Shown: positions 3,680 to 63,441, numbered from the stretch's first letter. The stretch is DNA of 64,000 nt from Minisyncoccota bacterium (GCA_028718635.1 JAQULK010000001.1:152626-216625), one strand, 5' to 3'. Numbers and translations are program-made. The notes: generated from the letters alone by a model not told the origin.

Positions 3680-4501
3680 ATGATTGAATTTTACAAATAT
3701 CACGGCGCTGGGAATGATTTTATTATGATAGACAATATCAATAAAAATATTTCTATGCCAAAGGAGCAAATTGCTTTTTTGTGCGATCGGCACATGGGCA
3801 TAGGGGCGGATGGATTAATTTTCCTTGAGCTGTCCCCGAAGGCAGATTGTTTTATGAATTATTACAATGCGGATGGAAGCTTGGCAGAAATGTGCGGTAA
3901 TGGTATCAGGTGTACAGCCAAATTTTTCTTAGAATTAACAAAATCAAAAAAGAAAGAATTATTTATAGACACCAGGGCTGGAATAAAAAAAGTAACATGC
4001 AATAAAGACGGAAGTTTTTCTGTGAATATGGGAATTCCAGTTTTTTCTCATAAGGATTTCCCAAAAGAACCTCTTGTGTTGGAAAACATTAAATTTAATT
4101 TCGTTTCGATGGGTAATCCGCATGCTGTTGGTTTTATAAAAAATATTTCTGAAATTGATATATCTAAAATCGGCCCCAAAATAGAATCGGATTCTAATTT
4201 TCCAAATAAAATAAATGCAGAGTTCGTGGAAAAAGTTAATGATACTTATTTTAAAGTAAGAGTTTGGGAACGCGGATGTGGGGAGACTCTAGCTTGCGGC
4301 ACAGGGGCTTGTGCTGTGTTTGCCTGCGTTAGGCCTTGCCTAACGCAGGCAAAGAGTACAAAAGAAATAACATTAGAATTTCCTGGCGGGAATCTTTTTT
4401 TATCAGAGAATAAAGAAGGAGAAATTATTCTTCGCGGGGAAGCGCAATTTGTTTTTAAGGGAGAAATAAATAATATACAAGGCAAAACTTTGTATATTTA
4501 A
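3680..4501 (+). CDS. dapF: Diaminopimelate epimerase
   Basis: YHGAGNDFIMID N-terminal motif and the two catalytic Cys-containing segments (MCGNGIRC, ACGTGACA). Confidence 0.9.
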   Translation: MIEFYKYHGAGNDFIMIDNINKNISMPKEQIAFLCDRHMGIGADGLIFLELSPKADCFMNYYNADGSLAEMCGNGIRCTAKFFLELTKSKKKELFIDTRAGIKKVTCNKDGSFSVNMGIPVFSHKDFPKEPLVLENIKFNFVSMGNPHAVGFIKNISEIDISKIGPKIESDSNFPNKINAEFVEKVNDTYFKVRVWERGCGETLACGTGACAVFACVRPCLTQAKSTKEITLEFPGGNLFLSENKEGEIILRGEAQFVFKGEINNIQGKTLYI

Positions 4502-10082: not shown

Positions 10083-12329
10083 ATGTTGAAAAATCAACCT
10101 GCCCGCCCTCCTAAGTCAGGAGCAGGCGGGGGAAGTATCTTTAAATTACATAAACCTTTTGAGCCAGCGGGGGATCAGCCAGTGGCTATCAGAGCGCTTG
10201 TGCAAGGTCTGTCTAAGGGAATGAAAAAGCAAACATTACTAGGAGCCACCGGCACAGGCAAGACTTTTACTATGGCAAATGTCATAGCTCAATATAACAA
10301 ACCAACTTTGGTAATAGCTCACAACAAAACCCTTGCCGCCCAGTTGGCCCAAGAATTTCGTGAATTTTTTCCAGATTCCGCAGTGCATTATTTTGTTTCT
10401 TATTATGATTATTATCAACCAGAAGCCTACATGCCTGCATCGGATACTTATATTGAAAAAGATGCCTCTATCAATAAAGAAATAGACATACTTCGCCATG
10501 CTTCCACGCAAGCGCTTTTAACAAGACGAGATGTGATTATAGTTGCCTCGGTTTCTTGTATTTATGGTTTGGGTTCTCCGGAAGAATATGAAAAAGTTAA
10601 TTTAAAACTTGAAATTGGTATGACGATGGACAGATTGACCTTAATGAAGAAATTAATTCAAATTCATTTTGAACGTACCAATGCAGATCTTACTCCTGGA
10701 ACTTTTCGTTCCATCGGTTCGCGGGTGGAATTTATGCCAGTTTCGGAAAGTATAATGTACCAAGTTGAAATGCAGGGCGGGAGAATTTCCAAAATAACAA
10801 AAGTTGATCCAGTTTCTTCTATTATAATTTCTGAAGAAAAGAATATTTTTATTTTCCCAGCAAAACATTTTATTACTGAAGATGCAAAAAAGAAAAAAGC
10901 GCTTATAGAAATTAAAAAAGAGCTAGCACAACAGCTAAAAAAATTTGAAAAAGAAGGGAAACTTTTAGAGGCTGAACGTATAAAAAGAAGAACTAATTAT
11001 GATTTGGCGATGATAAAAGAAGCTGGTTATTGCAACGGCATAGAAAATTATTCTAGGCACTTATCAGGGAAAAAAGAAGGCGAACCGCCAGAAACATTGC
11101 TTTCCTATTTCCCTAAGACTGGTTTTCTTACGATTATTGATGAATCGCATGTCACAATTCCACAACTACAAGGAATGTACGCAGGAGATGCTTCAAGAAA
11201 AAACACTTTAGTAGAATATGGATTTAGACTACCCTCCGCAAAAGATAACAGACCTTTAAAATTCAATGAGTTTGAAAATAGAATATATAATTCTATTTAT
11301 ACTTCCGCTACACCTGCAAAATTTGAGAAATCAGAAAGTAATCAAATAGTGGAACAAATTATTCGTCCGACAGGGCTTGTGGACCCAGAGACAATAGTGC
11401 GACCAGTTTCCGAAGGCGCATTTCCTCCCCTCCTTAACAAGGAGGGGAATGAGGGGAGGTTCTTAATTAATTCACCTCACCCCAACCCTCTCCTTAGTAA
11501 GGAGAGGGGGAATAACTACCCTGGCCAGATTCAAGATTTTATTCAAGAAACAGAAAAAACAATTGCAAAAGGTTTCAGGGTTCTAGCGACGACGTTGACA
11601 AAAAAAATGGCAGAGGATCTTTCTGTTTATTTAAAGGACAAAAAGATCAAAGCAGAATATCTACACAGTGATGTAAAAACGATAGACAGGATAAAAATTT
11701 TAACCCAATTCCGCAAAGGCGAATTTGATGTTTTAGTTGGCGTAAATTTACTTCGTGAAGGGTTGGATTTGCCAGAAGTTGCTCTGATTGGAATTCTAGA
11801 TGCCGACAAGGCAGGTTTTTTACGATCTGAAACATCTTTAATTCAAACGATTGGCCGTGCGGCTCGCAATAGTGAGGGTAAGGTTATTCTTTATGCCGAC
11901 ATTATGACTCCCGCGATGGATTATGCCCTAAAAGAAACTGCTCGTCGCAGAAATATTCAGCTTGCTTACAACAAAAAACATGGCATTACCCCAAAAACAA
12001 TTATGAAAAAGATAAAGGATATCACCGAAGAAATGGAAAGCGAACATGGGAAAGTTGTAAACGCCGAGCTCCAGCTTGATTTGGAAGTTTTTAAGCGCGC
12101 TTATGCGAAAGAATTTAAAAAAGAAAAGAAACAAAATCGGAAAATACCGAACACCAGCTTGGGGCAGTCTTATTTGTCTGATGAAGAGATAGGCAATTTA
12201 ATCTATGAAAAAATAATAAAAATGAAAGAAAAAGAAATGAACAAGGCAGTCAAAGAGTTAGATTTCGAGACTGCGGCGATACTAAGAGACGAGATCGGAG
12301 TTTTGCGAATGCGTACAGAAAAAAAATAG
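10083..12329 (+). CDS. uvrB: Excinuclease ABC subunit B
   Basis: GATGTGKTFTMA Walker A, helicase motifs, beta-hairpin region and a C-terminal UVR domain. Contains an in-frame insertion of about 32 aa between IVRP and GQIQDF. Confidence 0.95.
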   Translation: MLKNQPARPPKSGAGGGSIFKLHKPFEPAGDQPVAIRALVQGLSKGMKKQTLLGATGTGKTFTMANVIAQYNKPTLVIAHNKTLAAQLAQEFREFFPDSAVHYFVSYYDYYQPEAYMPASDTYIEKDASINKEIDILRHASTQALLTRRDVIIVASVSCIYGLGSPEEYEKVNLKLEIGMTMDRLTLMKKLIQIHFERTNADLTPGTFRSIGSRVEFMPVSESIMYQVEMQGGRISKITKVDPVSSIIISEEKNIFIFPAKHFITEDAKKKKALIEIKKELAQQLKKFEKEGKLLEAERIKRRTNYDLAMIKEAGYCNGIENYSRHLSGKKEGEPPETLLSYFPKTGFLTIIDESHVTIPQLQGMYAGDASRKNTLVEYGFRLPSAKDNRPLKFNEFENRIYNSIYTSATPAKFEKSESNQIVEQIIRPTGLVDPETIVRPVSEGAFPPLLNKEGNEGRFLINSPHPNPLLSKERGNNYPGQIQDFIQETEKTIAKGFRVLATTLTKKMAEDLSVYLKDKKIKAEYLHSDVKTIDRIKILTQFRKGEFDVLVGVNLLREGLDLPEVALIGILDADKAGFLRSETSLIQTIGRAARNSEGKVILYADIMTPAMDYALKETARRRNIQLAYNKKHGITPKTIMKKIKDITEEMESEHGKVVNAELQLDLEVFKRAYAKEFKKEKKQNRKIPNTSLGQSYLSDEEIGNLIYEKIIKMKEKEMNKAVKELDFETAAILRDEIGVLRMRTEKK
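11420..11515 (+). repeat. Two tandem GC-rich palindromic mini-elements (CCCCTCCTTAACAAGGAGGGG and CCTCACCCCAACCCTCTCCTTAGTAAGGAGAGGGGG) inserted in-frame in uvrB
   Basis: Perfect hairpin palindromes; they encode VSEGAFPPLLNKEGNEGRFLINSPHPNPLLSKERGNNYP, which is absent from canonical UvrB between RP and GQI. Confidence 0.8.
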
Positions 12330-12487
12330 ACTTTTTAGTTTTTTGTTGTATACTGTTTCTAATTTAATATTAAAAGAAAGTCATTGACACCCCCTATGAG
12401 TAACGGCGGGTGTATTGGATATTTTATACAAAAAAAATGAAAAATGACCCCGAAGGAAAGAGTACTTCCTACGGGGCAGGAAAAAAT

Positions 12488-15148
12488 ATGAAAAAAGATT
12501 TTCAAGACAAAATAATAGTAAAAGGCGCACGAACCCATAATTTAAAGAATATAAATGTGGAAATGCCTCGTAATAAAATGATAGCCATTACTGGTGTTTC
12601 TGGTTCTGGAAAATCATCTTTGGCTTTTGATACCATTTTTGCCGAAGGACAACGCCGATACGTGGAGTCTCTTTCTTCTTATGCGCGACAATTTTTAAAC
12701 CAAATGCCTAAACCTGATGTGGATGAGATCACGGGTCTTTCTCCTGCAATATCTATTGATCAAAAATCTCGTTCAAATAATCCGCGCTCGACTGTGGCGA
12801 CGATTACAGAGATCTATGATTACTTGCGAGTGATGTATGCGCGCATTGGGCATCCACATTGTCCTTTGTGTGGCGAAGAAATTAAAAAACTTTCCAATGA
12901 AGAAATTTTAAATTTTGTTTTGGAAAAGTTGAAAACACCCTCCTTGATTAAGGAGGGTGTAGGGGGTGGTAATTCCAAGAAATCACCACCTCGCCCTTCG
13001 GGCACTCCTCCTCAAAAAGGAGGAGATAAAATTCGTAAGGTTATGGGAGTCGAATGGGATGAAACAGAAATCAGTATTTTTTCACCAGTAATCAGGGGAA
13101 GAAAAGGGGAATATTATCAACTGCTTTATGATTTGCTTGGAAAAGGTTTTGCCGAAATTCGTCTTGATGGGATGATGAAAAAACTTCGCGAGCAAATAAC
13201 TCTTTCTAAAAACAAAGCACACAATATTGATATTCTAGTGGATCATTTTGCTCTACATGAGTTTACGGATGATAAGGACGGTAGTAGAATGCGTCTTTCT
13301 GAGGCTCTAGAACGTGCGCTTCTCGAGTCTGATGGTTTAGTAACTATAAAAATCGGCGATGAGGAATTTATTATGTCTGCAAAATTCGCTTGTAAGAATG
13401 ACGGTTTTTCTTTTCCAGAAGTGGAGCCGAGATTATTTTCTTTCAATTCTCCTTATGGTGCCTGTCCAGCTTGTAATGGCCTTGGTTCAAAATATTTTAT
13501 GGGAGATGAACCTTGTGAAACTTGCCATGGCGCGCGTTTACGCTCTGAAGCCTTAAATGTTTTTTTAGAGGCTTCCAAGAAGAAGGTAAACATATTAGAT
13601 CTTGCTTCTCTTTCTATAAAAGACGCATATACTTTTTTCAAAAACTTAAAACTCTCAGAACAAGAGAAGGAAATATCGGTGCCAGTCGTTCGGGAGATAG
13701 AAGCCAGACTTCAATTTATGCTGGACGTAGGTTTGGATTATTTGCAGTTGTCTCGCAAGGCGAACACTCTCTCTGGCGGAGAAGCGCAGCGTATCCGCTT
13801 GGCTTCTCAGCTTGGTTCGAGGCTCGTCGGCGCGCTTTATGTGCTCGATGAACCCACGATCGGACTTCACCAGCGAGACAACGATCGTTTGATAAAAACA
13901 CTTCAAAATTTACGTGATTTAGGCAATACAATTTTAATTGTAGAACATGATGAGGATACTATATATGCTTCGGATTATATCGTAGATATAGGACCGAAGG
14001 CCGGGGTGCACGGCGGGGAAGTGGTTGTTTCCGGTTATTTAGAAGATCTATTAACTGCAAAAAAGAACACAAATAATTCTCGAACACTTAGTTATTTGCG
14101 CGGAGAAACAAAAATAGAAATTCCTAAAAAACGGCGCCATCCTAAAGGCGCGCTTCGAATTGCCGGAGGAAATATTTTTAATATTAACAACCTTAATGTA
14201 GAAGTGCCTCTCGGAGTAATGACATCTATCACTGGTGTTTCTGGTTCCGGAAAAAGTTCTTTTATGTATGAGATTCTTTATAAAAATCTTCAAGCCCGCT
14301 TTGAGCGAAAGTATCGCACAGCCAAGATTTTTAATTGTTCCTCATTTTCTGGGACTGAATATCTATCCAGAGTTATTTTGATTGATCAATCGCCCATAGG
14401 CAGGACTCCGCGTTCAAATATTGTTACTTATACAGGAGCCTTCACGCATATCCGAGATCTTTTTGCTTCGACCGAAGAAGCGCGCTTGCGAGGATGGAAA
14501 GCAAATCGTTTTTCTTTCAATGTGAAAGGTGGTCGTTGTGAGGCCTGCGAAGGCAATGGTGAGATAGCTGTCGAAATGCATTTTTTGCCGACGGTTTATG
14601 TCACTTGCGATGTATGTGATGGAAAACGTTTTGATAAAGAGACGCTTACTGTAAAATACAAGAAAAAAAATATTTACGAAGTCCTGCATATGACTGTAGA
14701 AAATGGCCTTACTTTTTTCAAAGATATTCCGGCGATTTCCGATAGACTGCAGACCCTCTTTGATGTAGGGCTTGGTTACTTGGAACTCGGCCAATCAGCT
14801 ACAACGCTCTCTGGCGGGGAAGCGCAACGAGTAAAAATAAGTAGCGAGCTTTATCGTCCGCATTTGGAAAAAACTATTTATCTTTTAGATGAACCGACTG
14901 TGGGGCTTCATTATGATGACGTGCAGAAACTTTTGGAGGTTTTAAATAAATTGGTATCTCATGGCAATACGGTTGTCCTAATTGAACACAACCTTGATAT
15001 TGTGAAAAGTTCAGATTACATTATAGATATTGGTCCAGAAGGAGGAGTAGACGGAGGTAAAATTGTTGCCAAAGGCACGCCGGAAGAAGTGGCTGGAAAC
15101 AGCAAATCACACACTGGCAAATACTTAAGAAGAGTTTTGAGAAAATAA
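12488..15148 (+). CDS. uvrA: Excinuclease ABC subunit A
   Basis: Two ABC ATPase modules ([12 protein letters not shown] and [10 protein letters not shown]), zinc fingers, and ABC signature LSGGE twice. Start set at the ATG at 12488 ([21 protein letters not shown]) by alignment to the UvrA N-terminus. The ORF-track start at 12410 is a GTG. Confidence 0.9.
12935..13026 (+). repeat. Three small GC-rich palindromes inserted in-frame in uvrA
   Basis: CACCCTCCTTGATTAAGGAGGGTG, GGTGGTAATTCCAAGAAATCACCACC and CCTCCTCAAAAAGGAGGAG; the encoded segment [30 protein letters not shown] is absent from canonical UvrA. Confidence 0.75.
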
Positions 15149-19037: not shown

Positions 19038-19943
19038 TTATTTCTGATGCACGGAGCAAAAATGCGCGCTGCGGCCGTTTATTATTTTTCTAATTATTGT
19101 GCCTTTACAACCTTTTTTTCTGCATTTTTCTCCTGTGCGTCTATAAGCTTCATGATGCAGTTGGAATTTTCCGGGCAGGCCATAAATATTTTTGTAATCT
19201 GACATTGAGTCTCCGCCGAAATCTATGCCTTTCGCGAGTGTTTCTTTGATGGCTTTGAATATCAATTTAATTTCTGGCTTTTTGAGCGTGGAAACTTTTC
19301 TCTCCGGATGCACTCCGGCGCGCCAAAGTATTTCATCTGAATAAATATTACCAATGCCGGCAATAATTCTTTGATCCATCAAGACTGTCTTAATTTTCCC
19401 ATTTTGTTTTTTAAAAATTTGTAATTCGAAATTCGTAATTGTAAATTGTTTCTCTAACGGTTCCGGTCCGATATTATTCAGATGTTTACTACCTGCCCCG
19501 TAGGAAGTAATCTTTCCTTCGGGGTCGTGGGCAACGTTAGTATCTAATAAAGTAATTTTTCCGAATTTACGCATATCTGAAAAAATTAAATAATGTTTGC
19601 TTGTCCCGCCATGGCGTGGGTTAGATAAAGTGAAAACCACATGCGCAAATTTAATTTTTGGATCTTTGCCGTAAAATAAATAACCGGTCATCTTCATATG
19701 AACCAAGATGGTTTTACCTTCGGACAAGTTTATCAGGATATTTTTTGCACGTCTTTCGGCTGATATAATTTTCTTATTTAAAACTTCCTTTTTAAAATTT
19801 CTGAAAAATTTTGGATTTGCCACGCTGTCTCTTTTGCGCTTGTCTTTCGTCGCCAAATCAGTCCAAACGTCCTTTATTACAAGGCCTAGGACAGTCTTTT
19901 TGAGACCTCTTGTAGTTGTTTCTACTTCTGGTAATTCAGGCAT
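19038..19943 (-). CDS. mutM: Formamidopyrimidine-DNA glycosylase
   Basis: N-terminal MPELPEVE catalytic motif, H2TH region, and a C-terminal CxxC...CxxC zinc finger. Contains a 29-bp GC-rich palindrome in-frame (PEGKITSYGAG). Confidence 0.9.
   Translation of the reverse strand: MPELPEVETTTRGLKKTVLGLVIKDVWTDLATKDKRKRDSVANPKFFRNFKKEVLNKKIISAERRAKNILINLSEGKTILVHMKMTGYLFYGKDPKIKFAHVVFTLSNPRHGGTSKHYLIFSDMRKFGKITLLDTNVAHDPEGKITSYGAGSKHLNNIGPEPLEKQFTITNFELQIFKKQNGKIKTVLMDQRIIAGIGNIYSDEILWRAGVHPERKVSTLKKPEIKLIFKAIKETLAKGIDFGGDSMSDYKNIYGLPGKFQLHHEAYRRTGEKCRKKGCKGTIIRKIINGRSAHFCSVHQK
19496..19524 (+). repeat. 29-bp palindromic element (CCCCGTAGGAAGTAATCTTTCCTTCGGGG) in-frame in mutM; a near-identical inverted copy lies at 12448..12476 just upstream of uvrA
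   Basis: The two copies differ at 2 of 29 positions after reverse-complementing one; each forms an 11-bp stem hairpin. Confidence 0.75.
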
Positions 19944-44648: not shown

Positions 44649-45476
44649 ATGGACAACGAAATCAAAATAGCCATTTTCAAAGGCAAGGAAATCAGAAAAA
44701 TCATTTATAATAATGAATGGTGGTTTTCGGTTGTGGATGTTATTGAAGTTTTGACGGATAGCGTCAATCCTCGAGATTATTGGTATAGAATGAAAGCAAG
44801 AGTTAAAGATGAGGATGGGGTTGAGTTGTCGACAATTTGTCGACAACTGAAACTGCAATCTTCCGACGGGAAATTTTATGAAACCGACTGTGCCAACACC
44901 GAAGGCTTATTTCGAATTATTCAGTCCATTCCTTCTCCTAAAGCCGAGCCACTAAAAAGATGGCTTGCCAAAGTGGGCTATGAACGAATTCAGGAAATTG
45001 AAGATCCTGAATTAGCCACCAAAAGAACACGAATTTTATACAAACTCAAAGGCTATCCCGACAACTGGATCGAAAAAAGAATGCGAGGCATCGCTATCCG
45101 CGAAGAATTGACAGACGAATGGAAAAAACGAGGAGCCAAAGAGCAACGGGAATACGAAATTTTGACAGCGGAAATTTCCAAAGCGAGTTTCGGTGTTACT
45201 CCGAGCGAATACAAAAAACTAAAAGGATTAAAAAGGGAAAACCTGCGTGACCATATGGACGATTTTGAACTTATCTTTAATATGCTCGGCGAAAGAGCTA
45301 CAACTGAAATACACAGAACTGAAAATTCCCAAGGTGTGGTAAAATTAAAAGCTGATGCTAAAGCTGGTGGCAGTATTGCCGGTGGGGCCAGGAAAAAACT
45401 TGAAAAACGATTAGGCCGGTCCATTGTTTCTAAAAACAATTTTAAGTTGTTAAAAAATAGGAAAAGGTTAAAATAA
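44649..45476 (+). CDS. Bro-N domain protein / DNA-damage-inducible protein D (DinD)-like
   Basis: N-terminal Bro-N-like segment (IKIAIFKGKEIRKIIYNNEWWFSVVDVIEVL) and a C-terminal DinD-like region (LRDHMDDFELIFNMLGERATTEIH...GGSIAGGARKKLE). TATAAT lies 7 nt upstream of the ATG. Confidence 0.65.
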   Translation: MDNEIKIAIFKGKEIRKIIYNNEWWFSVVDVIEVLTDSVNPRDYWYRMKARVKDEDGVELSTICRQLKLQSSDGKFYETDCANTEGLFRIIQSIPSPKAEPLKRWLAKVGYERIQEIEDPELATKRTRILYKLKGYPDNWIEKRMRGIAIREELTDEWKKRGAKEQREYEILTAEISKASFGVTPSEYKKLKGLKRENLRDHMDDFELIFNMLGERATTEIHRTENSQGVVKLKADAKAGGSIAGGARKKLEKRLGRSIVSKNNFKLLKNRKRLK

Positions 45477-45509
45477 AATCAAACTATGCCTTACACAAAC
45501 TTCAAAATC

Positions 45510-45524
45510 GAGAGAGAGAGAGAG
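45510..45524 (+). repeat. (GA)7 dinucleotide microsatellite abutting the GTG start of the beta-helix surface protein gene
   Basis: GAGAGAGAGAGAGAG immediately followed by GTGAATGAC. Confidence 0.8.
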
Positions 45525-48142
45525 TGAATGACGCTCGCCAATTTTGTCATCCTGAACTTGTTTCAGGATCTAATGCGTTTGCCAAAATAATAAAACTTTT
45601 CCGTTTCATTTTTTTCTTCTCGATATTTCTGGGAAGCTTTTTTGTTTTGGCAAACGAAGCAAGCGCGGCGACGTATTATGTGGATGCGACTCTTGGAAAG
45701 GATACATATAATGGTATAACCACAACTATAAATGATGGAGCAAGTGAAGGTCCATGGAAAACACTAACTAAAGTAAATGCCGCGCTGAATGCCGCTTCTA
45801 TTCATGCTGGTGATAGTGTTTTATTTAAAGCAGGGGAGACTTTCTTTGGCTATTTGTATGTTAAGGTAACGGGAACGGTAGGAAATATATTAACATTTGA
45901 TTCCTATGGAAGTGGAAATAAACCTATAATCGACGCTACTGGAAATAATAGCGGTATCGATCTTCGTGGAATAAATTATGTTACGTTTAATAATTTGGAT
46001 GTTAGAAATGCAACATTCCAAGGATACTTTTTTCTCAATGGAAATGACCACATAACAATAAATAATGGAAGTATATCTTCTTCTGCAAAGGCTATCCATC
46101 TCTATAACAATACAATTTCAAATCTAACAATTTCAAATCTAAATGCCAGTAATAATACATATGGTATTTATGGATTTGCCGGGGTTACTGTTAACACATT
46201 GTCCATATCCAATAGCCATTTCGACGACAACACATCAGAAGGTTTTTTCACCGATGGCACTGCGAACGGGAGTAATTTTACGATAACAGATACCACCATG
46301 TCCCGTAATGGGATCGGATCTGATAAAAATGGATTTTTACTACAAGGGACCGGCAGTACAGTTATCCTTACCAGGGTAACATCAGCCAACAACGGAGGGG
46401 ATGGATTTGGTGTCCATAACACTTGGATTGGTGTTATTTTTGATTATTGTACGGCGGATACTAACGGAACAGACGGGATAGGATCAGATGGAGACGGATT
46501 CAGTTTCCATGAGACTTCTTCTGGAATAATCAGGTATTCAATCAGCAAAAATAATTTAAAAACTGCGATTGCTCACGTTAATAGCTCCGCTGTTGAAATG
46601 TATTATGATCTTTTTTATCATGCAACCAATGGCACCTTGCCGCTTGTTTTATTACAAAATACTGGAAATCATAAATTATATAATAATATTATTTACAGTG
46701 GAAGTCAGACTGGTGATGCAGTAAGCGTTGAAGGGACCGTTGATATGCAAAACAATATAATAGATGGTTTCAATCGTGGCCTTATAAAAACTGGAGGAAC
46801 AATATCCAATGACCATGATATTATTTATGGAGTATTAACTTCTAATTATGTTGGTATTTCTGCCGGTGCTTATTCAATTATACAGGATCCAAAATTTTTT
46901 AATTCCAGTATTTATAACTTTTCCCTTCTCCCCACTTCCCCCGCCATCGACTCTGGCACCGATGTCTCATTAACCACCGACTACGCCGGCAATTCCATCT
47001 ACGGTACGCCCGACATCGGCGCTTATGAATACCAGCCGCCATATACCATGGGCACGGATGCAGTAAACACTTCCACCAGTGTCAGAATGTACGGAGACGA
47101 AAAGTTCAGAAACAAAACCGCCACCACCACGGAAACCACGGCTGATCTCTCAATTACCATTCCCGACTCGGATAAAACCAAGTGGCTGGACATAGCAGTT
47201 TCCACCTGGGACAACTCCGGAACTTATCACAAAACCTGGACGGAAAACACTACCAGCACCATTACCAACACCCTCCATACCATCGGAGACCTGGAACCCA
47301 ACAAATACTACAATGTGTCCGTGGATTCCGTTCTGGGAAACAACATTACCGGCGATAACTGTTCAAACGGCCTCTGTCTTTCCAACGCGGAAGGTAAAAT
47401 ATCTTTTACCTATACTGGTTCATATTCCGAACACACCTTTGACGTGGAAGAAGGAGATAATACCGCCCCCATCCGTTCCGCCGGTTTGCCTTCCGGCAGT
47501 CAACCTGCTGGCACAACGCAAGTAACAATGTCTTTGACCACCGACGAAAACGCCACCTGCAAATACTCCACCTCTGCCGACACCGCTTACGCTTCCATGA
47601 CCGATACCTTTACCACAACTGGCACCCAATCCCATTCCACCACCATTTCCGGTCTCTCCAACGGCAATACATACAATTACTATGTCCGCTGCACTGACGG
47701 CTCAAATGCTAACAGCAACGATTACCCTATTTCTTTTTCCATTACTAACCCTACCGCGCATTCTTCAGGCAACAGTGCTCAGAGTCGAATCAACAATCTG
47801 CTCTCCATGGGCAACTACACCCAAGCGCAACAATTGGCTAATCAATACAATATTTCAATTCCAGTAATTACCACCCCGCCTACAGCACCCCTCCTGAATC
47901 AAGGAGGGGAAAGAAGTGTTAATGCTTACAACTTTGGTCTCTCTGTTCTCAAAAAAGGAAGCAAAGGTGAAGCTGTCAAAGAACTCCAGAAGTTCTTAAA
48001 CCAAGATCTGAAACTAAACTTGAAAATAGATGGCATCTTGGGATCAAAAACAACTATGGCTATCAAACAATACCAAAAAGCGCATAATCTAAAAGTGGAT
48101 GGGGTAGTGGGGGAGAAGACGAAGGGGAGGATGGGGGTGTGA
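45524..48142 (+). CDS. Secreted right-handed beta-helix (pectate-lyase-like repeat) protein with C-terminal peptidoglycan-binding domain
   Basis: Hydrophobic signal-like segment then cleavage-like ANEASAA; many N.T.S..N..I/..N repeats typical of parallel beta-helix; C-terminal PG_binding_1-like segment (KGEAVKELQKFLNQ...IDGILGSKTTMAIKQYQ). GTG start preceded by a (GA)7 repeat. Confidence 0.7.
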   Translation: MNDARQFCHPELVSGSNAFAKIIKLFRFIFFFSIFLGSFFVLANEASAATYYVDATLGKDTYNGITTTINDGASEGPWKTLTKVNAALNAASIHAGDSVLFKAGETFFGYLYVKVTGTVGNILTFDSYGSGNKPIIDATGNNSGIDLRGINYVTFNNLDVRNATFQGYFFLNGNDHITINNGSISSSAKAIHLYNNTISNLTISNLNASNNTYGIYGFAGVTVNTLSISNSHFDDNTSEGFFTDGTANGSNFTITDTTMSRNGIGSDKNGFLLQGTGSTVILTRVTSANNGGDGFGVHNTWIGVIFDYCTADTNGTDGIGSDGDGFSFHETSSGIIRYSISKNNLKTAIAHVNSSAVEMYYDLFYHATNGTLPLVLLQNTGNHKLYNNIIYSGSQTGDAVSVEGTVDMQNNIIDGFNRGLIKTGGTISNDHDIIYGVLTSNYVGISAGAYSIIQDPKFFNSSIYNFSLLPTSPAIDSGTDVSLTTDYAGNSIYGTPDIGAYEYQPPYTMGTDAVNTSTSVRMYGDEKFRNKTATTTETTADLSITIPDSDKTKWLDIAVSTWDNSGTYHKTWTENTTSTITNTLHTIGDLEPNKYYNVSVDSVLGNNITGDNCSNGLCLSNAEGKISFTYTGSYSEHTFDVEEGDNTAPIRSAGLPSGSQPAGTTQVTMSLTTDENATCKYSTSADTAYASMTDTFTTTGTQSHSTTISGLSNGNTYNYYVRCTDGSNANSNDYPISFSITNPTAHSSGNSAQSRINNLLSMGNYTQAQQLANQYNISIPVITTPPTAPLLNQGGERSVNAYNFGLSVLKKGSKGEAVKELQKFLNQDLKLNLKIDGILGSKTTMAIKQYQKAHNLKVDGVVGEKTKGRMGV

Positions 48143-48244
48143 ATTCCTTTTTAAAATAATACAAAAATAGCAAGGGTGGTCTTGATATTTTTTGGCTAAA
48201 TATATACATTTGTGGTAGATTTGATAAAGTAGGATTTATAATAT

Positions 48245-48316
48245 GCCCTTGTAGTTCAATGGATAGAACAGAGCTCTTCTAAGGCTTCGATGTAGGTTCG
48301 ATTCCTACCAAGGGCA
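48245..48316 (+). tRNA. tRNA-Arg (anticodon UCU)
   Basis: Acceptor GCCCTTG/CAAGGGC, D arm GTTCAATGGATAGAAC, anticodon loop CTTCTAA, T arm TAGGTTCGATTCCTA. Confidence 0.75.
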
Positions 48317-48500
48317 CATGCGTGTGAGACCGACCGAGAGGCTTATTTTGTAAGCTTTTTGGAAAGTTGAATACAAAAAAAGTATTCCTAGTGGGGTACC
48401 TCTTAAGTTATTTGGAACCCAAAAATATTTAGGTTCTATTTTGTAAATTACATTACTATTTAATAGAGCTTGATTATAGAAAAAATGATATATTTATATC

Positions 48501-49253
48501 ATGGATAAAAAATCCAACAATAGAACATTCCTATTACCGCAATTCTCGCTTTTCGATATTCAAATAGGTGTGGGCGAAGAAGAATTCAAAAAAGGGTACA
48601 AATTATTTAATGACGGCAAGGTTGGGAAAATAAAGTCAGATATTCGTGGTTTTAGTGCCGCTGTTGCTGGTGCGCATCCTTATGAAGTATTTGTTGAAGC
48701 TAATGATTTTGACCAAGGGTCTTGCAGTTGCTACCTAGGGCAAAAAGACATTCTTTGTAAACATATGATTGCACTCGCTATTGCTGCAATCTTCAAATAT
48801 AATCCTGAAAACTTCAAGCTCATCACAAGTCCGCTTGATCGAGCAGTATGTTCTGGACAAATACGAGATATCACAAAAGAAGAATTAGTTGCTATCAAAA
48901 AAGAATTGAAACACGGATTATCATATATAAAATATTATGACGGACCGTCTTCAAAATGGTTTACGTATCAAGATACTTTGTTAAAAGGCGGGCGACTTAT
49001 GCGGTACGCACTTTCAAAACTTCCCATATGCGAAGAGTCGGCAAAGATATGTATTGATTTTCTTGTGAAGCTGGATAAAAAAGTTTGCAATGGGGTTGAT
49101 GATTCTGATGGAACAGTGGGTGAGCTTATGACAGATATAGTTGAAGTGCTAAATTTATTTGTAAGCAATAAACCTGACCTTCGTAATTTTATTAGTGAGC
49201 ACTTGCCAAAAGAAACCTCCTTTGGCTGGGAGAGGATGTTTGGTGTAATTTAA
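48501..49253 (+). CDS. SWIM zinc-finger domain protein
   Basis: CSCYLGQKDILCKHMIALAI matches the CxCxnCxH SWIM signature. Confidence 0.6.
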   Translation: MDKKSNNRTFLLPQFSLFDIQIGVGEEEFKKGYKLFNDGKVGKIKSDIRGFSAAVAGAHPYEVFVEANDFDQGSCSCYLGQKDILCKHMIALAIAAIFKYNPENFKLITSPLDRAVCSGQIRDITKEELVAIKKELKHGLSYIKYYDGPSSKWFTYQDTLLKGGRLMRYALSKLPICEESAKICIDFLVKLDKKVCNGVDDSDGTVGELMTDIVEVLNLFVSNKPDLRNFISEHLPKETSFGWERMFGVI

Positions 49254-49254
49254 T

Positions 49255-50304
49255 TTACTTCTTTCTATACCTCGTCGTCCTCCCTTGTCCGATGCGTTCC
49301 ACTTTTTTCAAACGCAAAAGAGTGTCGATTGCTTGTGATACAGTTGGTCTCGCTACTTTTGTGTTCTTTGAAATTTCTCCCGGGGTTGCTTCAGAAACTT
49401 TTTCAAGATATTCCCAAACCAAAAGCTGTTTTGGAGATAAAAGTTTTTCAATATTTTCTTTTGACAATAATTCAATTGCTTGCTTTGCCTGAGTGAGTAG
49501 AACATTAAAAAAGAATTCAAGCCATGGCTCAATATTTGCATTGTTAGATTTTAAAGTTTTCTGACTTTTGCGAAGAGCGATATAGTACTCAGCTTTGTTG
49601 TCTTCAATTAATTTCTCATGCGAGACATAAGGCATATACGCGTAGCCAGCCTGAAGCATCATTAAATTTGTTAGTACTCTGGAAAGTCTGCCGTTGCCAT
49701 CTTGGAATGGGTGAATATTTAAAAATTCAATTAAAAAATTAGCAACAATAAGCAGTGGGTGGATTTCTTTTTGAATAAAAGATTCTTTTGTCCATTCCAC
49801 TAACTCCTGCATTTCCTTTGGCGTAAGCCAAGCAGGCGTAGTATCAAATAACACGCCGACGGATTCACCAGCCTCGTTTATCATTTCAACCCTATTCTCT
49901 GTTTTTTTGTATTCGCCTCTGTGAAGCTTATCCTTCTCTACATACTTCAAAAGTTCTTTATGCAGATGCTGAATACTACTTTCCGAAAATGGTATTTTGT
50001 TATAAGAATTGAAAACATTATTCAGCAGTTCGTAATATCCTTGCACCTCCTGCTTGTCCCGATCAGCGAATTTTTGCATAGAAAGTCCGCGCATCATTTT
50101 TTCAACATCTTCGTCTGAAAGTTTTGCTCCTTCAATACGAGTTGATGCGCCAGCCGAAGTAATTAAAACCGAGCGTTTCAATCTTCCGAGCGCCTGCGGA
50201 TTTATCTCCGCTCCACCAATCCATCTTCCTTTTAACTCATCAATTTGGTTGATGATTGTCCATAGACTTTGTGGTATATTTTGAATACGTTTATTGTAAT
50301 TCAT
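49255..50304 (-). CDS. Fic family protein with C-terminal winged-helix domain
   Basis: Canonical Fic motif HPFQDGNGRLSRV; C-terminal HTH-like tail. Confidence 0.85.
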   Translation of the reverse strand: MNYNKRIQNIPQSLWTIINQIDELKGRWIGGAEINPQALGRLKRSVLITSAGASTRIEGAKLSDEDVEKMMRGLSMQKFADRDKQEVQGYYELLNNVFNSYNKIPFSESSIQHLHKELLKYVEKDKLHRGEYKKTENRVEMINEAGESVGVLFDTTPAWLTPKEMQELVEWTKESFIQKEIHPLLIVANFLIEFLNIHPFQDGNGRLSRVLTNLMMLQAGYAYMPYVSHEKLIEDNKAEYYIALRKSQKTLKSNNANIEPWLEFFFNVLLTQAKQAIELLSKENIEKLLSPKQLLVWEYLEKVSEATPGEISKNTKVARPTVSQAIDTLLRLKKVERIGQGRTTRYRKK

Positions 50305-51797: not shown

Positions 51798-51881
51798 ATC
51801 TAAGAAATACTTTCTCACCCCAACCCCTCTCCATAAATTGATTTATGGAGAGGGGAAAGCAAGGGGAGAGGTGAATTAATT

Positions 51882-60907: not shown

Positions 60908-61645
60908 ATGATTTTACCCAATACCAAAGACACCATCCACAAAGCCTGGCTTTACAGGTTGCTTTCGGGAATTTACGACGAGCCTCAACTCGCTGGGTTT
61001 TTGTATTTCAAGGGCGGAACTTGTGCGGCGATGCTCGGGTATCTTGATCGTTTTTCGGTGGATTTGGATTTTGATTTTACCGGTAAAAAGGAAGATGTTC
61101 CGATGGTTCAAAAAAAACTGGAAAAAGTTTTCAGAAAGCTCGGCATGGAAATAAAAGACCGAAGCAAAAACGTTCCGCAATATTTTTTGAAATATCCCGC
61201 TAAAGATCATGAGCGAAACACGATAAAATTGGATGTTACTTTTCCTCCGCCCTTGGCCAACAAATATGAACCCAAGGAATTTGCTGATATTGACAGGATC
61301 ATTACTTGCCAGACTATCGAAACGATGTTTGCCAATAAATTGGTGGCGCTTATCGACCGTTATGAGAAAAACGAGTCCATCGCCGGGCGCGACCTGTATG
61401 ACATCCATCATTTTTTCTTTCAAGGCTTCACTTATGACAAGGAAGTGATTGAGGAAAGAAGGAAAAAGTCTGTCGCGGAGTTTTTTAGGGAGCTAGCGGA
61501 TTTTATCGAGAAAAACATCACTGAAACGATTATCAACCAGGACTTGAATTCTTTGCTCGCACCTGATCAATTCCAAAAAATTAGAAAGATATTGAAGCGG
61601 GAAACACTGATGTTTCTGCGGGACGAAATAAAAAGGAGTAGTTGA
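60908..61645 (+). CDS. AbiEii/AbiGii-family nucleotidyltransferase toxin (DUF1814)
   Basis: FKGGTCAAMLGYLDRFSVDLDFDF matches the GGTa...RfSeDlDF nucleotidyltransferase motif. Confidence 0.75.
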   Translation: MILPNTKDTIHKAWLYRLLSGIYDEPQLAGFLYFKGGTCAAMLGYLDRFSVDLDFDFTGKKEDVPMVQKKLEKVFRKLGMEIKDRSKNVPQYFLKYPAKDHERNTIKLDVTFPPPLANKYEPKEFADIDRIITCQTIETMFANKLVALIDRYEKNESIAGRDLYDIHHFFFQGFTYDKEVIEERRKKSVAEFFRELADFIEKNITETIINQDLNSLLAPDQFQKIRKILKRETLMFLRDEIKRSS

Positions 61646-63372: not shown

Positions 63373-63441
63373 AAAGACCTCACCCCAGCCCTCTCCTTGT
63401 TAAGGAGAGGGGGGTTCATTTGACTATTTGAGCAAAAAGAG

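Follow-up and report, generated by a model that had tools for sequence, protein, structure and literature searches.

A 33-nucleotide palindromic element, probably mobile and selfish, carried in frame within genes of Patescibacteria

In a 64,000-nucleotide stretch of DNA from a Minisyncoccota bacterium (GCA_028718635.1, JAQULK010000001.1:152626-216625; hereafter the window), the mutM gene and the 5' region of uvrA each contain the same short palindrome. These palindromes are probably copies of a 33-nt non-autonomous mobile hairpin element, akin to the repetitive extragenic palindromic sequences (REPs) and the Rickettsia palindromic elements (RPEs), that is selfish and is tolerated in its host proteins as a flexible loop. 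Two independent comparisons of filled with empty sites, one in mutM and one inside uvrA, show that insertion is precise, that it leaves no target duplication and that it usually falls just 3' of an RA dinucleotide (R, purine). With a length of 33 nt and five of its six frames open, the element does not destroy the genes it enters, and selection would retain chiefly copies situated in surface loops, linkers or termini and read in the sense frame as PEGKxxSYGAG. One such insertion would be the mutM copy, placed in the Fpg linker that joins the N-terminal domain to H2TH, and the uvrA copy, in the leader or at the extreme N-terminus, would occupy another tolerant place.

The window is a chromosome segment of 36 % G+C in which polA, uvrB, uvrA, uvrC, mutM and ruvA are present. 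The 29-mer CCCCGTAGGAAGTAATCTTTCCTTCGGGG lies at 19496-19524 on the plus strand, and its reverse complement lies at 12448-12476 with one mismatch, a loop base (T/G); a search allowing up to three mismatches found the 29-mer at these two sites only within the window, and there were no matches in 100 dinucleotide-preserving shuffles. A reading of the window made from the sequence alone (the sequence-only reading) had described this 29-bp palindrome as common to mutM and the uvrA 5' region, which is borne out, and had given two mismatches between the copies, of which there is one. It had also placed the copies in opposite orientation, and that holds on the plus strand only, for relative to the host genes both have the same orientation and the same reading frame (DPEGK[I/S]TSYGAG). 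The stretch common to the two is in fact 33 nt, consisting of the 29-nt imperfect palindrome and a 3' tag, CAGG; the proposed insertion of about 10 residues is real, but the unit is 33 rather than 29 nt and the insert is exactly 11 codons. The two copies and their host genes are as follows.

19492 to 19524, minus strand: 33-nt hairpin element, loop variant ATTA, inside mutM; codes for PEGKITSYGAG, residues 141-151 of Fpg; covariance-model score 57 bits.
12448 to 12480, plus strand: 33-nt hairpin element with the loop AGTA, placed either in the leader of uvrA or in an N-terminal extension; covariance-model score 58 bits.
19038 to 19943, minus strand: host gene mutM (fpg), 301 aa; Pfam domains Fapy_DNA_glyco and H2TH; the commonest orthologue length is 283 aa.
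12488 to 15148, plus strand: host gene uvrA as annotated, 886 aa; Pfam assignment; protein P0121 is 100 % identical at 886 aa.

Translation of the minus-strand copy within the open reading frame (ORF) at 19038-19943 gives DPEGKITSYGAG, which confirms that it codes for PEGKITSYGAG inside Fpg. Among 120 Fpg homologues (68-100 % identity), this peptide occurs in two only, the window protein and P0003, where it stands between AHD and SKHL, and the nearest relatives, P0002 and P0004, read AHD-SKHL. When the window mutM is aligned with the DNA of those relatives (L121 and L122), there is a single gap of exactly 33 nt; the filled site reads CACGA[CCCCGAAGGAAAGATTACTTCCTACGGGGCAGG]TAGTAA, the placement of the gap is unambiguous and there is no target duplication. 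Hence, the suggestion of a mobile or copied hairpin is supported, the mutM copy being a true insertion by its exact gap against empty-site orthologues. The sequence-only reading had allowed for the Fpg segment being conserved in orthologues and for the uvrA-proximal match being the sole other occurrence; the segment is absent from 118 of the 120 homologues, and there are hundreds of other copies. An independent copy sits 8 residues upstream in seven other Fpg homologues, and likewise in L102 and L116 (LLD^PEGKSTSYGAG^TK). In the AlphaFold model of the window Fpg, residues 141-151 are coil with a pLDDT below 50, between helices at 135-138 and 153-156, and the insert is accordingly predicted to form a disordered coil in the linker that joins the N-terminal and H2TH domains. 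The same gene carries a 21-nt quasi-palindrome at 19599-19619, CCCACGCCATGGCGGGAC, which adds seven residues, PRHGGTS. This segment, too, is present or absent among Fpg homologues in a manner incongruent with the 33-nt insert, and all four combinations of the two indels are seen, which points to recombination or to repeated gain and loss.

The second comparison of filled and empty alleles comes from within uvrA, where the window holds the empty allele and the alignment again shows an exact 33-nt gap without target duplication. Two further features of the uvrA region are needed here.

14061 to 14062, plus strand: empty target site, GCAAA^AAAG, within the window uvrA; a 33-nt copy is present here in the relatives L078, L079, L102 and L069.
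12444 to 12491, plus strand: candidate 15-codon upstream ORF, read from the sequence, that spans the element and ends in a TGA overlapping the ATG of uvrA.

The uvrA-proximal copy stands just before the ATG at 12488, as had been noted, with its palindrome 11 nt upstream; it is in frame with both that ATG and an ATG at 12437, and its translation is DPEGKSTSYGAG in an ORF that runs on into uvrA. The NCBI annotation starts UvrA at 12488 (P0121, 886 aa), which puts this copy in the leader; with that start, the copy lies 7 nt from an AGGA that could be the ribosome-binding site, and its CAGG tag runs into this Shine-Dalgarno-like motif. A promoter-like TAGACT-16-TATACT at 12327-12354 would make the element part of the transcript. 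With a start at 12437 instead, the protein would gain MKNDPEGKSTSYGAGKN; four UvrA homologues are annotated from the upstream ATG, and L125 and L079 have the same arrangement. In other UvrA homologues, independent copies lie clearly within the first 10 codons (MKK-DPEGKSTSYGA-DFQ and DFQD-PERKQASYGAG-KII). The evidence on the window copy fits a 5' untranslated position as well as a coding one. No empty site was found for this copy, the nearest element-free orthologues (L123 and L124) having an unrelated leader. Elsewhere in the leader, at 12387-12413, there is a hairpin, ACACCCCC...GGGGTGT, that is conserved in L123 and L125 and that some gene callers translate as an N-terminal extension (MSKVGC..., MSMAGC...).

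The distribution of the element was assessed with two scans. The first covered one genome per GTDB species with the pattern CCCCGNAGGAA-N7-TTCCTNCGGGG and gave at least 120 loci, including at least 102 copies of the asymmetric form CCCCGAAGGAA...TTCCTACGGGG; among the matches listed, nearly all of these copies were in metagenome-assembled genomes (MAGs) of Patescibacteria, namely Nomurabacteria, Paceibacterota, Nealsonbacteria, Wolfebacteria and Parcubacteria. A looser scan of metagenomes added at least about 90 further copies of the family, in other hosts. Together the scans gave more than 190 copies, most of them in genomes and metagenomes of Nomurabacteria/Paceibacteria, and the host genes belong to well over 50 families. 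About 15 matches of the first scan (Gluconacetobacter, Nocardiopsis, Oscillospiraceae and others) were set aside as unrelated, being perfect palindromes with C/G at the N positions. A phylum-wide range that includes Saccharibacteria was likewise rejected as probably an artefact of third-party-annotation MAG labelling, the 'Saccharibacteria' RuvB being 85-88 % identical to Nomurabacteria RuvB; similarly, a 'Thermoplasmatota' contig is 100 % identical to a Nomurabacteria contig. There were no matches in IMG/VR viral contigs and none in PLSDB plasmids. Literature searches found no description by DNA or peptide sequence, nor for the candidate phyla radiation (CPR) together with REP, MITE (a miniature transposable element with inverted repeats) or REP-associated tyrosine transposase (RAYT), and the 33-nt family therefore appears to be undescribed, although the kind of element is known from other bacteria. 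The metagenome scan also returned 31 matches that were rejected as an unrelated multi-hairpin non-coding module. This module, of about 170 nt (...AAACCCCGTTAGAAG..CTTCTAACGGG..ACGGGGCATTAAACCCCGTG..CCCCGCTGCAAGCCCCGATAGAAGC..GCTTCGCACGGGGCAAGCAGCGGGGCTTTCTAACGGGGTAAA), is conserved, with flanks that differ between contigs; it occurs in L127, L129, L131, L137, L142, L145, L148, L149, L158 and about 20 more metagenome contigs, of 39-52 % G+C, and has no Rfam match even at E<=0.1.

The unit can be written CCCCGAAGGAAAG-NNNN-CTTCCTACGGGG-CAGG, with the anatomy 5'-CCCCG·A·AGGAA·A·G-NNNN-C·TTCCT·A·CGGGG-CAGG-3', i.e. two 5-bp stems with a conserved A·A mismatch between them, one bulged A, a G-C pair that closes a variable tetraloop, and the unpaired CAGG tag. 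In the window, the palindrome is imperfect, with 11-nt arms, one A·A mismatch and a 7-nt spacer. Among the matches listed, the base at -1 is A in 82 % of 73 non-redundant sites and that at -2 is G/A in 75 %, with composition at background level further out, and the tail C-A-G/A-G is conserved, CAGG/CCTG being found at 57 of the 73 sites and CA[A/G]G at 71. Because the empty sites show it, RA can be assigned to the target and CAGG to the element. The loop is AGTA in 41 of the copies listed and CAAG in 33, other variants being rarer, and the loop-closing G13 and C18 are conserved. The predicted fold has 5 bp, a 1x1 A·A internal loop, 5 bp and an apical loop, with a predicted energy, in kcal/mol, of -14.7 for RNA (z about -3) and -8.4 for DNA.

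A covariance model (R1) built from 32 distinct copies and run on the retrieved loci found diverged relatives in which the inner stem AGGAA/TTCCT is switched to ACCAA/TTGGT or ACGAA/TTCGT; a sub-family with AGCAA/TTGCT is also present. Among the diverged relatives, the pair A10-T20 can become G-C and G13-C18 can become A-T, and some loops are extended. By pair counting, 97.9 % of cells are paired, and both-sided changes are seen in 5 pairs and 23 cells, values reached by none of 500 shuffles, in an alignment that, having been fitted to the model, leans towards structure. The metagenome scan, which left three inner-stem positions free on both sides, provides an independent check of the stem: among the matches listed, the inner stem was fully complementary as AGG/CCT in 55, AGC/GCT in 8, ACC/GGT in 1 and TGG/CCA in 1, and had one extra mismatch as AGG/CCA in 12 and AGG/CCG in 3. 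The A·A mismatch, the bulged A and the tag are retained across the sub-families, and such persistent irregularities would be the pattern expected of a site recognized by a protein. No Rfam family reached its gathering score over the whole window, and none was found at E<=1 around the uvrA copy. Two sub-families meet in the tRNA-guanine transglycosylase (TGT) gene of two MAGs, where two elements stand inverted about 45-50 bp apart (540-575 with 619-651 in L001, and 1753-1788 with 1841-1873 in L018); one of the two is read antisense as PAPYQAKGFGSG, and the pair resembles a doublet of the REPIN kind inside a gene.

Most copies are within genes. About 85 % of those listed lie inside ORFs longer than 110 aa, and some are intergenic. 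For the species genomes, the 88 listed copies in ORFs of at least 120 aa are read as PEGKxxSYGAG in 72, PKERVLPTGQ in 8, PRRKEYFLRGR in 4 and antisense in 4; for the canonical sub-family in metagenomes, the corresponding counts among 47 listed copies are 31, 10, 6 and 0. Thus, about 66-82 % of the intragenic copies listed are in the PEGKxxSYGAG frame, which yields a hydrophilic loop rich in Gly, Ser and Pro. The element is free of stops in five of its six frames, and in neither tally does a long ORF use the frame with the stop; among the extended-loop variants, those examined within ORFs measure 36 nt. The frame tallies, the absence of the stop-containing frame and the lengths of 33 and 36 nt are taken here to indicate translation of the element and a filtering of insertions by selection on its peptide. 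Each of the residues P, E, G, K, S, Y, G and A occurs in 90 % or more of 68 aligned host proteins among the matches listed.

The hosts are diverse. Species-genome host proteins form at least 47 clusters, and among the matches listed they include P-type ATPase, RuvB, UvrA, polynucleotide phosphorylase (PNPase), UvrC, TGT, UvrD, an Mg-chelatase-type ATPase and many singletons; those listed from metagenomes include the proton-translocating pyrophosphatase (H+-PPase), translational GTPases, TsaD, transketolase, tRNA synthetases, triosephosphate isomerase (TIM), enolase, trigger factor, PNPase, P-type ATPase and UvrA. Independent insertions recur in particular loops, at two sites in Fpg, at GK^Y and GKY^ in PNPase, and at IR^ and IREGK^ in P-type ATPase, and different loop variants occupy identical sites in UvrC and PNPase. 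At orthologous sites, the 11 element positions left free by the search pattern are 89 % identical, compared with about 50 % at flanking third-codon positions; possible causes of the excess are recent conversion or re-insertion, ascertainment and purifying selection.

The sequence-only reading had implied a special tie between the palindrome and DNA-repair genes, and this is borne out in part only. Of 68 host ORFs from the species genomes, at least 19 encode Uvr or Ruv repair proteins (21 with two Mg-chelatase-type ATPases, possibly ComM), a count that is inflated because it includes orthologous copies, but in the independent metagenome sample UvrA accounts for 3 of the 75 hosts among the matches listed and the rest are mostly ordinary housekeeping genes. 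With orthologous copies discounted, the repair-gene bias of the 33-nt element is weak. UvrA and Fpg are nonetheless real hot spots for short insertions in this clade. Among 120 UvrA homologues (85-93 % identity to the window protein; 859-939 aa) there are 55 distinct lengths and 22 indel islands of at least five columns, with several recurring peptide families, and 120 Fpg homologues (68-100 % identity; 280-313 aa) have 24 distinct lengths; in comparison, 120 homologues of a PilB-type ATPase (82-93 % identity; 564-572 aa), the single control protein and hence a comparison that carries no statistical test, have four lengths, 110 being exactly 565 aa.

Other GC-rich hairpin families are also present in frame in the window, with two copies in uvrB, two in uvrA, the 21-nt one in mutM and a palindrome in dapF. 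One such family, CCCTCTCCTT-nnn-AAGGAGAGGG with the preceding tag CTCACCCCA(A/G), is found at 11426-11448 and 11471-11510 (uvrB), 63374-63413 and 51809-51855; the two in-frame uvrB copies add about 35 residues (EGAFPPLLNKEGNEGRFLINSPHPNPLLSKERGNNYP), one copy is just past the stop of a SIMPL gene and one relative is intergenic. Its stems contain sequences like the Shine-Dalgarno and anti-Shine-Dalgarno motifs. In uvrA, the adjacent palindromes ACACCCTCCTTGATTAAGGAGGGTGT and GGTGGTAATTCCAAGAAATCACCACC at 12935-12990 are coding, and the same peptides are present or absent among the 120 UvrA homologues. The dapF palindrome at 4317-4355 is near-perfect, with 18-nt arms (TGTTTGCCTGCGTTAGGC-CTT-GCCTAACGCAGGCAAAGA), and closely follows the GTGACA motif of the active site; this may be a further insertion in frame. 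Elsewhere, 44649-50304 and 60908-61645 hold accessory or defence-like genes (Bro-N, SWIM, Fic/DOC and AbiEii), and from about 28 to 38 kb the G+C content is higher (41-46 %), with cell-surface repeat proteins and a MacB/HlyD efflux system.

Tentatively, and by analogy with REPs and IS200/IS605, the element may travel as a single-stranded DNA hairpin through an enzyme acting in trans, an HUH tyrosine transposase or a functional analogue. No transposase, TnpA and RAYT included, was found in the 64-kb window or beside 10 intergenic copies, and tblastn with an IS200-like query gave no match in about 1 Mb of loci; since no such enzyme was found in the DNA covered, mobilization by an enzyme is offered here as a hypothesis. 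These negatives also count against the reading of the palindromes as a selfish mobile element, as do several positive observations. Copy number per genome looks low, unlike that of classical REPs, with 2 copies in 64 kb and 3-5 per MAG among the matches listed. The conservation of 89 versus about 50 %, in a sample ascertained for intact stems, fits nucleotide-level purifying selection (a function), or repeated conversion or re-insertion, no less well than selfish spread. Finally, intragenic copies are nearly all sense, which tolerance of the peptide can explain but which a role at the RNA level would explain too.

Several rival explanations bear on the same observations. The palindromes could be more than tolerated junk, either as a new class of CAGG-tagged hairpin that is moved by an enzyme unrelated to RAYTs and that, with several other hairpin families, colonizes UvrA/B/C, Fpg and RuvB time and again because a change in excision or recombination repair profits element or host, or as a conserved RNA or peptide module under purifying selection. 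It would fit the difference in identity just given, the sense bias and the length variation of UvrA and Fpg against a PilB of invariant length in the same clade, and mutator or competence-linked effects have been speculated for REPs (PMC3733652); on the whole, it is judged unlikely. It is also unlikely that a functional cis-element of RNA or DNA, be it a stem-loop for mRNA stability or translation or a site for a regulatory protein, was recruited into a set of genes and is maintained there, its coding being the price of a gene-dense genome. In keeping with such a role, nucleotide conservation at orthologous sites is far above that at synonymous positions in the flanks, the hairpin keeps its A·A mismatch, bulged A and CAGG tag, the stems covary, the sense-orientation bias is nearly complete, the uvrA copy in the leader directly abuts the Shine-Dalgarno-like AGGA, and REPs elsewhere are thought to act as RNA elements (PMC3733652). 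Yet the hosts are functionally unrelated (enolase, TIM, transketolase, tRNA synthetases, H+-PPase, elongation factor G, P-type ATPase, PNPase and Uvr proteins), closely related orthologues fare well when they lack the element, and positions within genes are scattered; moreover, the frame bias and the 33/36-nt lengths point to constraint on a translated peptide, and the irregularities of the hairpin are equally expected of a transposase recognition site. That the selected unit is instead the 11-residue peptide, for example as a flexible linker with a site for Ser/Thr/Tyr modification or recognition that spreads by benefiting host proteins, would agree with the strong bias to one frame, with the eight residues shared by at least 90 % of the 68 hosts listed and with recurrence in the same loops of UvrA, Fpg, PNPase and P-type ATPase. 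It is very unlikely, for synonymous positions are identical across copies, which suggests constraint on DNA or RNA; 18-34 % of the intragenic copies listed are in other frames and encode unrelated peptides (PKERVLPTGQ and PRRKEYFLRGR), some copies are intergenic, and stem sub-families alter the peptide (PEPKPSAWYGAG, PEAKQACYGAG) yet keep the hairpin.

Rather improbable, too, is the view that the copies descend vertically from a few ancient insertions, with no ongoing transposition, and that gene conversion has kept them uniform or homologous recombination of whole alleles has carried them from relative to relative. The same sites are indeed occupied across species whose host proteins are 84-90 % identical, the rare ATTA loop is common to P0001 and P0003, the four combinations of the two Fpg indels imply recombination, and natural competence has been reported for Saccharibacteria, within the Patescibacteria (PMC10187176). 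Against it, insertions lie at more than 100 different sites in unrelated genes, one loop may hold neighbouring insertion points that do not coincide, and different loop variants share one site; 33 nt is very short for conversion between loci, and many de novo insertions are required, whatever their date. Chance similarity, or an artefact of assembly or sequencing, can scarcely be entertained: the shortness of the sequence is all that speaks for it, and the lack of matches in 100 shuffles, the recurrence of the same 33-mer in MAGs from many independent studies and assemblers, and its in-frame position within conserved genes already refute it. Two other candidates were rejected, a DNA-uptake sequence in view of 2 copies per 64 kb and an 11-codon insertion, and an intron, intein or translational bypass as unnecessary, read-through being simplest given the 33/36-nt lengths and a stop-containing frame that none of the long ORFs tallied uses.

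The genomes of Patescibacteria are tiny and gene-dense, and are usually described as poor in mobile DNA. If the palindromes are copies of a selfish hairpin, then a length that is a multiple of three, freedom from stops and a harmless loop when read represent one route by which selfish DNA can persist there, and clean filled and empty sites for a single 33-nt hairpin bear directly on how REP-like elements move. The earlier observation of palindromic repeats in excision-repair genes is now extended to another phylum. There are practical consequences as well, as the inserts inflate variation in protein length, lead gene callers to add false N-terminal extensions, of which uvrA here is a case, and can mislead the assignment of orthologues, sequence alignment and the prediction of structures when CPR proteins are studied. 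What is new here appears to be the 33-nt CAGG-tagged family, in-frame palindromic elements in other bacteria being already known.

The closest counterparts are the intragenic GTAG- and CGTC-tagged REPs, which Di Nocera et al. (2013, PMC3733652) detected in Opitutus, Rickettsia, Thioalkalivibrio and Xanthomonas, with a preference for uvrABCD, recBCD, polA and dnaE2. Like the 33-nt element, intragenic REPs, including RPE-4 and RPE-6 of Rickettsia, are imperfect palindromes of 20-40 nt with an unpaired 4-nt end tag, and their intra-ORF copies add short peptides; their hosts include uvrA, uvrB, uvrC, uvrD and polA (PMC3733652), and the 33-nt element is likewise in frame in excision-repair genes. 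The same source warns that N-terminal REP copies may be extragenic, and it treats mobilization of REPs by RAYTs as a hypothesis that is left open for the CGTC REPs; these have no known dedicated transposase (PMC3733652), and none was found for the 33-nt element in the DNA searched. The differences are equally clear. Whereas REPs are mainly extragenic and abundant, the 33-nt element is mostly intragenic and low-copy, with one inverted pair only among the matches listed (TGT of L001 and L018), and its host phylum, Patescibacteria, is unlike those of known intragenic REPs. Its tag is CAGG/CCTG rather than GTAG, which occurs on the bottom strand only inside the stem, spanning the mismatch. A CGTC REP has a CGTC (TGTC/CCTC) tag, an 8-9-bp stem that starts with A-T pairs, a 4-5-nt loop and a CCA tail; the 33-nt element has the tag CCTG, a 5+5-bp stem that starts with CCCC, the A·A interruption and no CCA tail. 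Elements of the RPE-1 type (PMC10969869) are similar in being selfish palindromic DNA, in frame in unrelated genes of a reduced genome and adding a peptide considered compatible with the fold, but they are about 100-150 bp long, whereas the 33-nt element is a single hairpin of unrelated sequence with exact filled and empty sites and no target duplication.

A MITE has the terminal inverted repeats of an insertion sequence (IS) and a target-site duplication; the 33-nt element shows no duplication at two sites, and the whole of it is one hairpin. IS200/IS605 elements and their miniature derivatives, which include the REP/RAYT systems and palindrome-associated transposable elements (PATEs), have a sub-terminal imperfect hairpin with conserved irregularities, are strand-specific and insert 3' of a short target without target duplication. 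The 33-nt element, too, is an imperfect, strand-asymmetric hairpin that keeps its irregularities and leaves no target duplication. Compared with these, however, it has RA alone as its target in place of a 4-5-nt site, and is a single hairpin without distinct left and right ends. Like the 33-nt element, the GC clusters of yeast mitochondria and the repetitive hairpin-forming elements of sponge mitochondria (PMC2800124) are short GC-rich hairpins that have entered AT-rich, compact genomes, in places within coding regions. They belong to other genetic systems, differ in sequence and are not consistently a multiple of three in length or in frame. By its sequence, then, the 33-nt element seems to work like an intragenic REP or RPE and yet to fall outside both families, its tag and stem plan being different and its length shorter than that of RPE-1.

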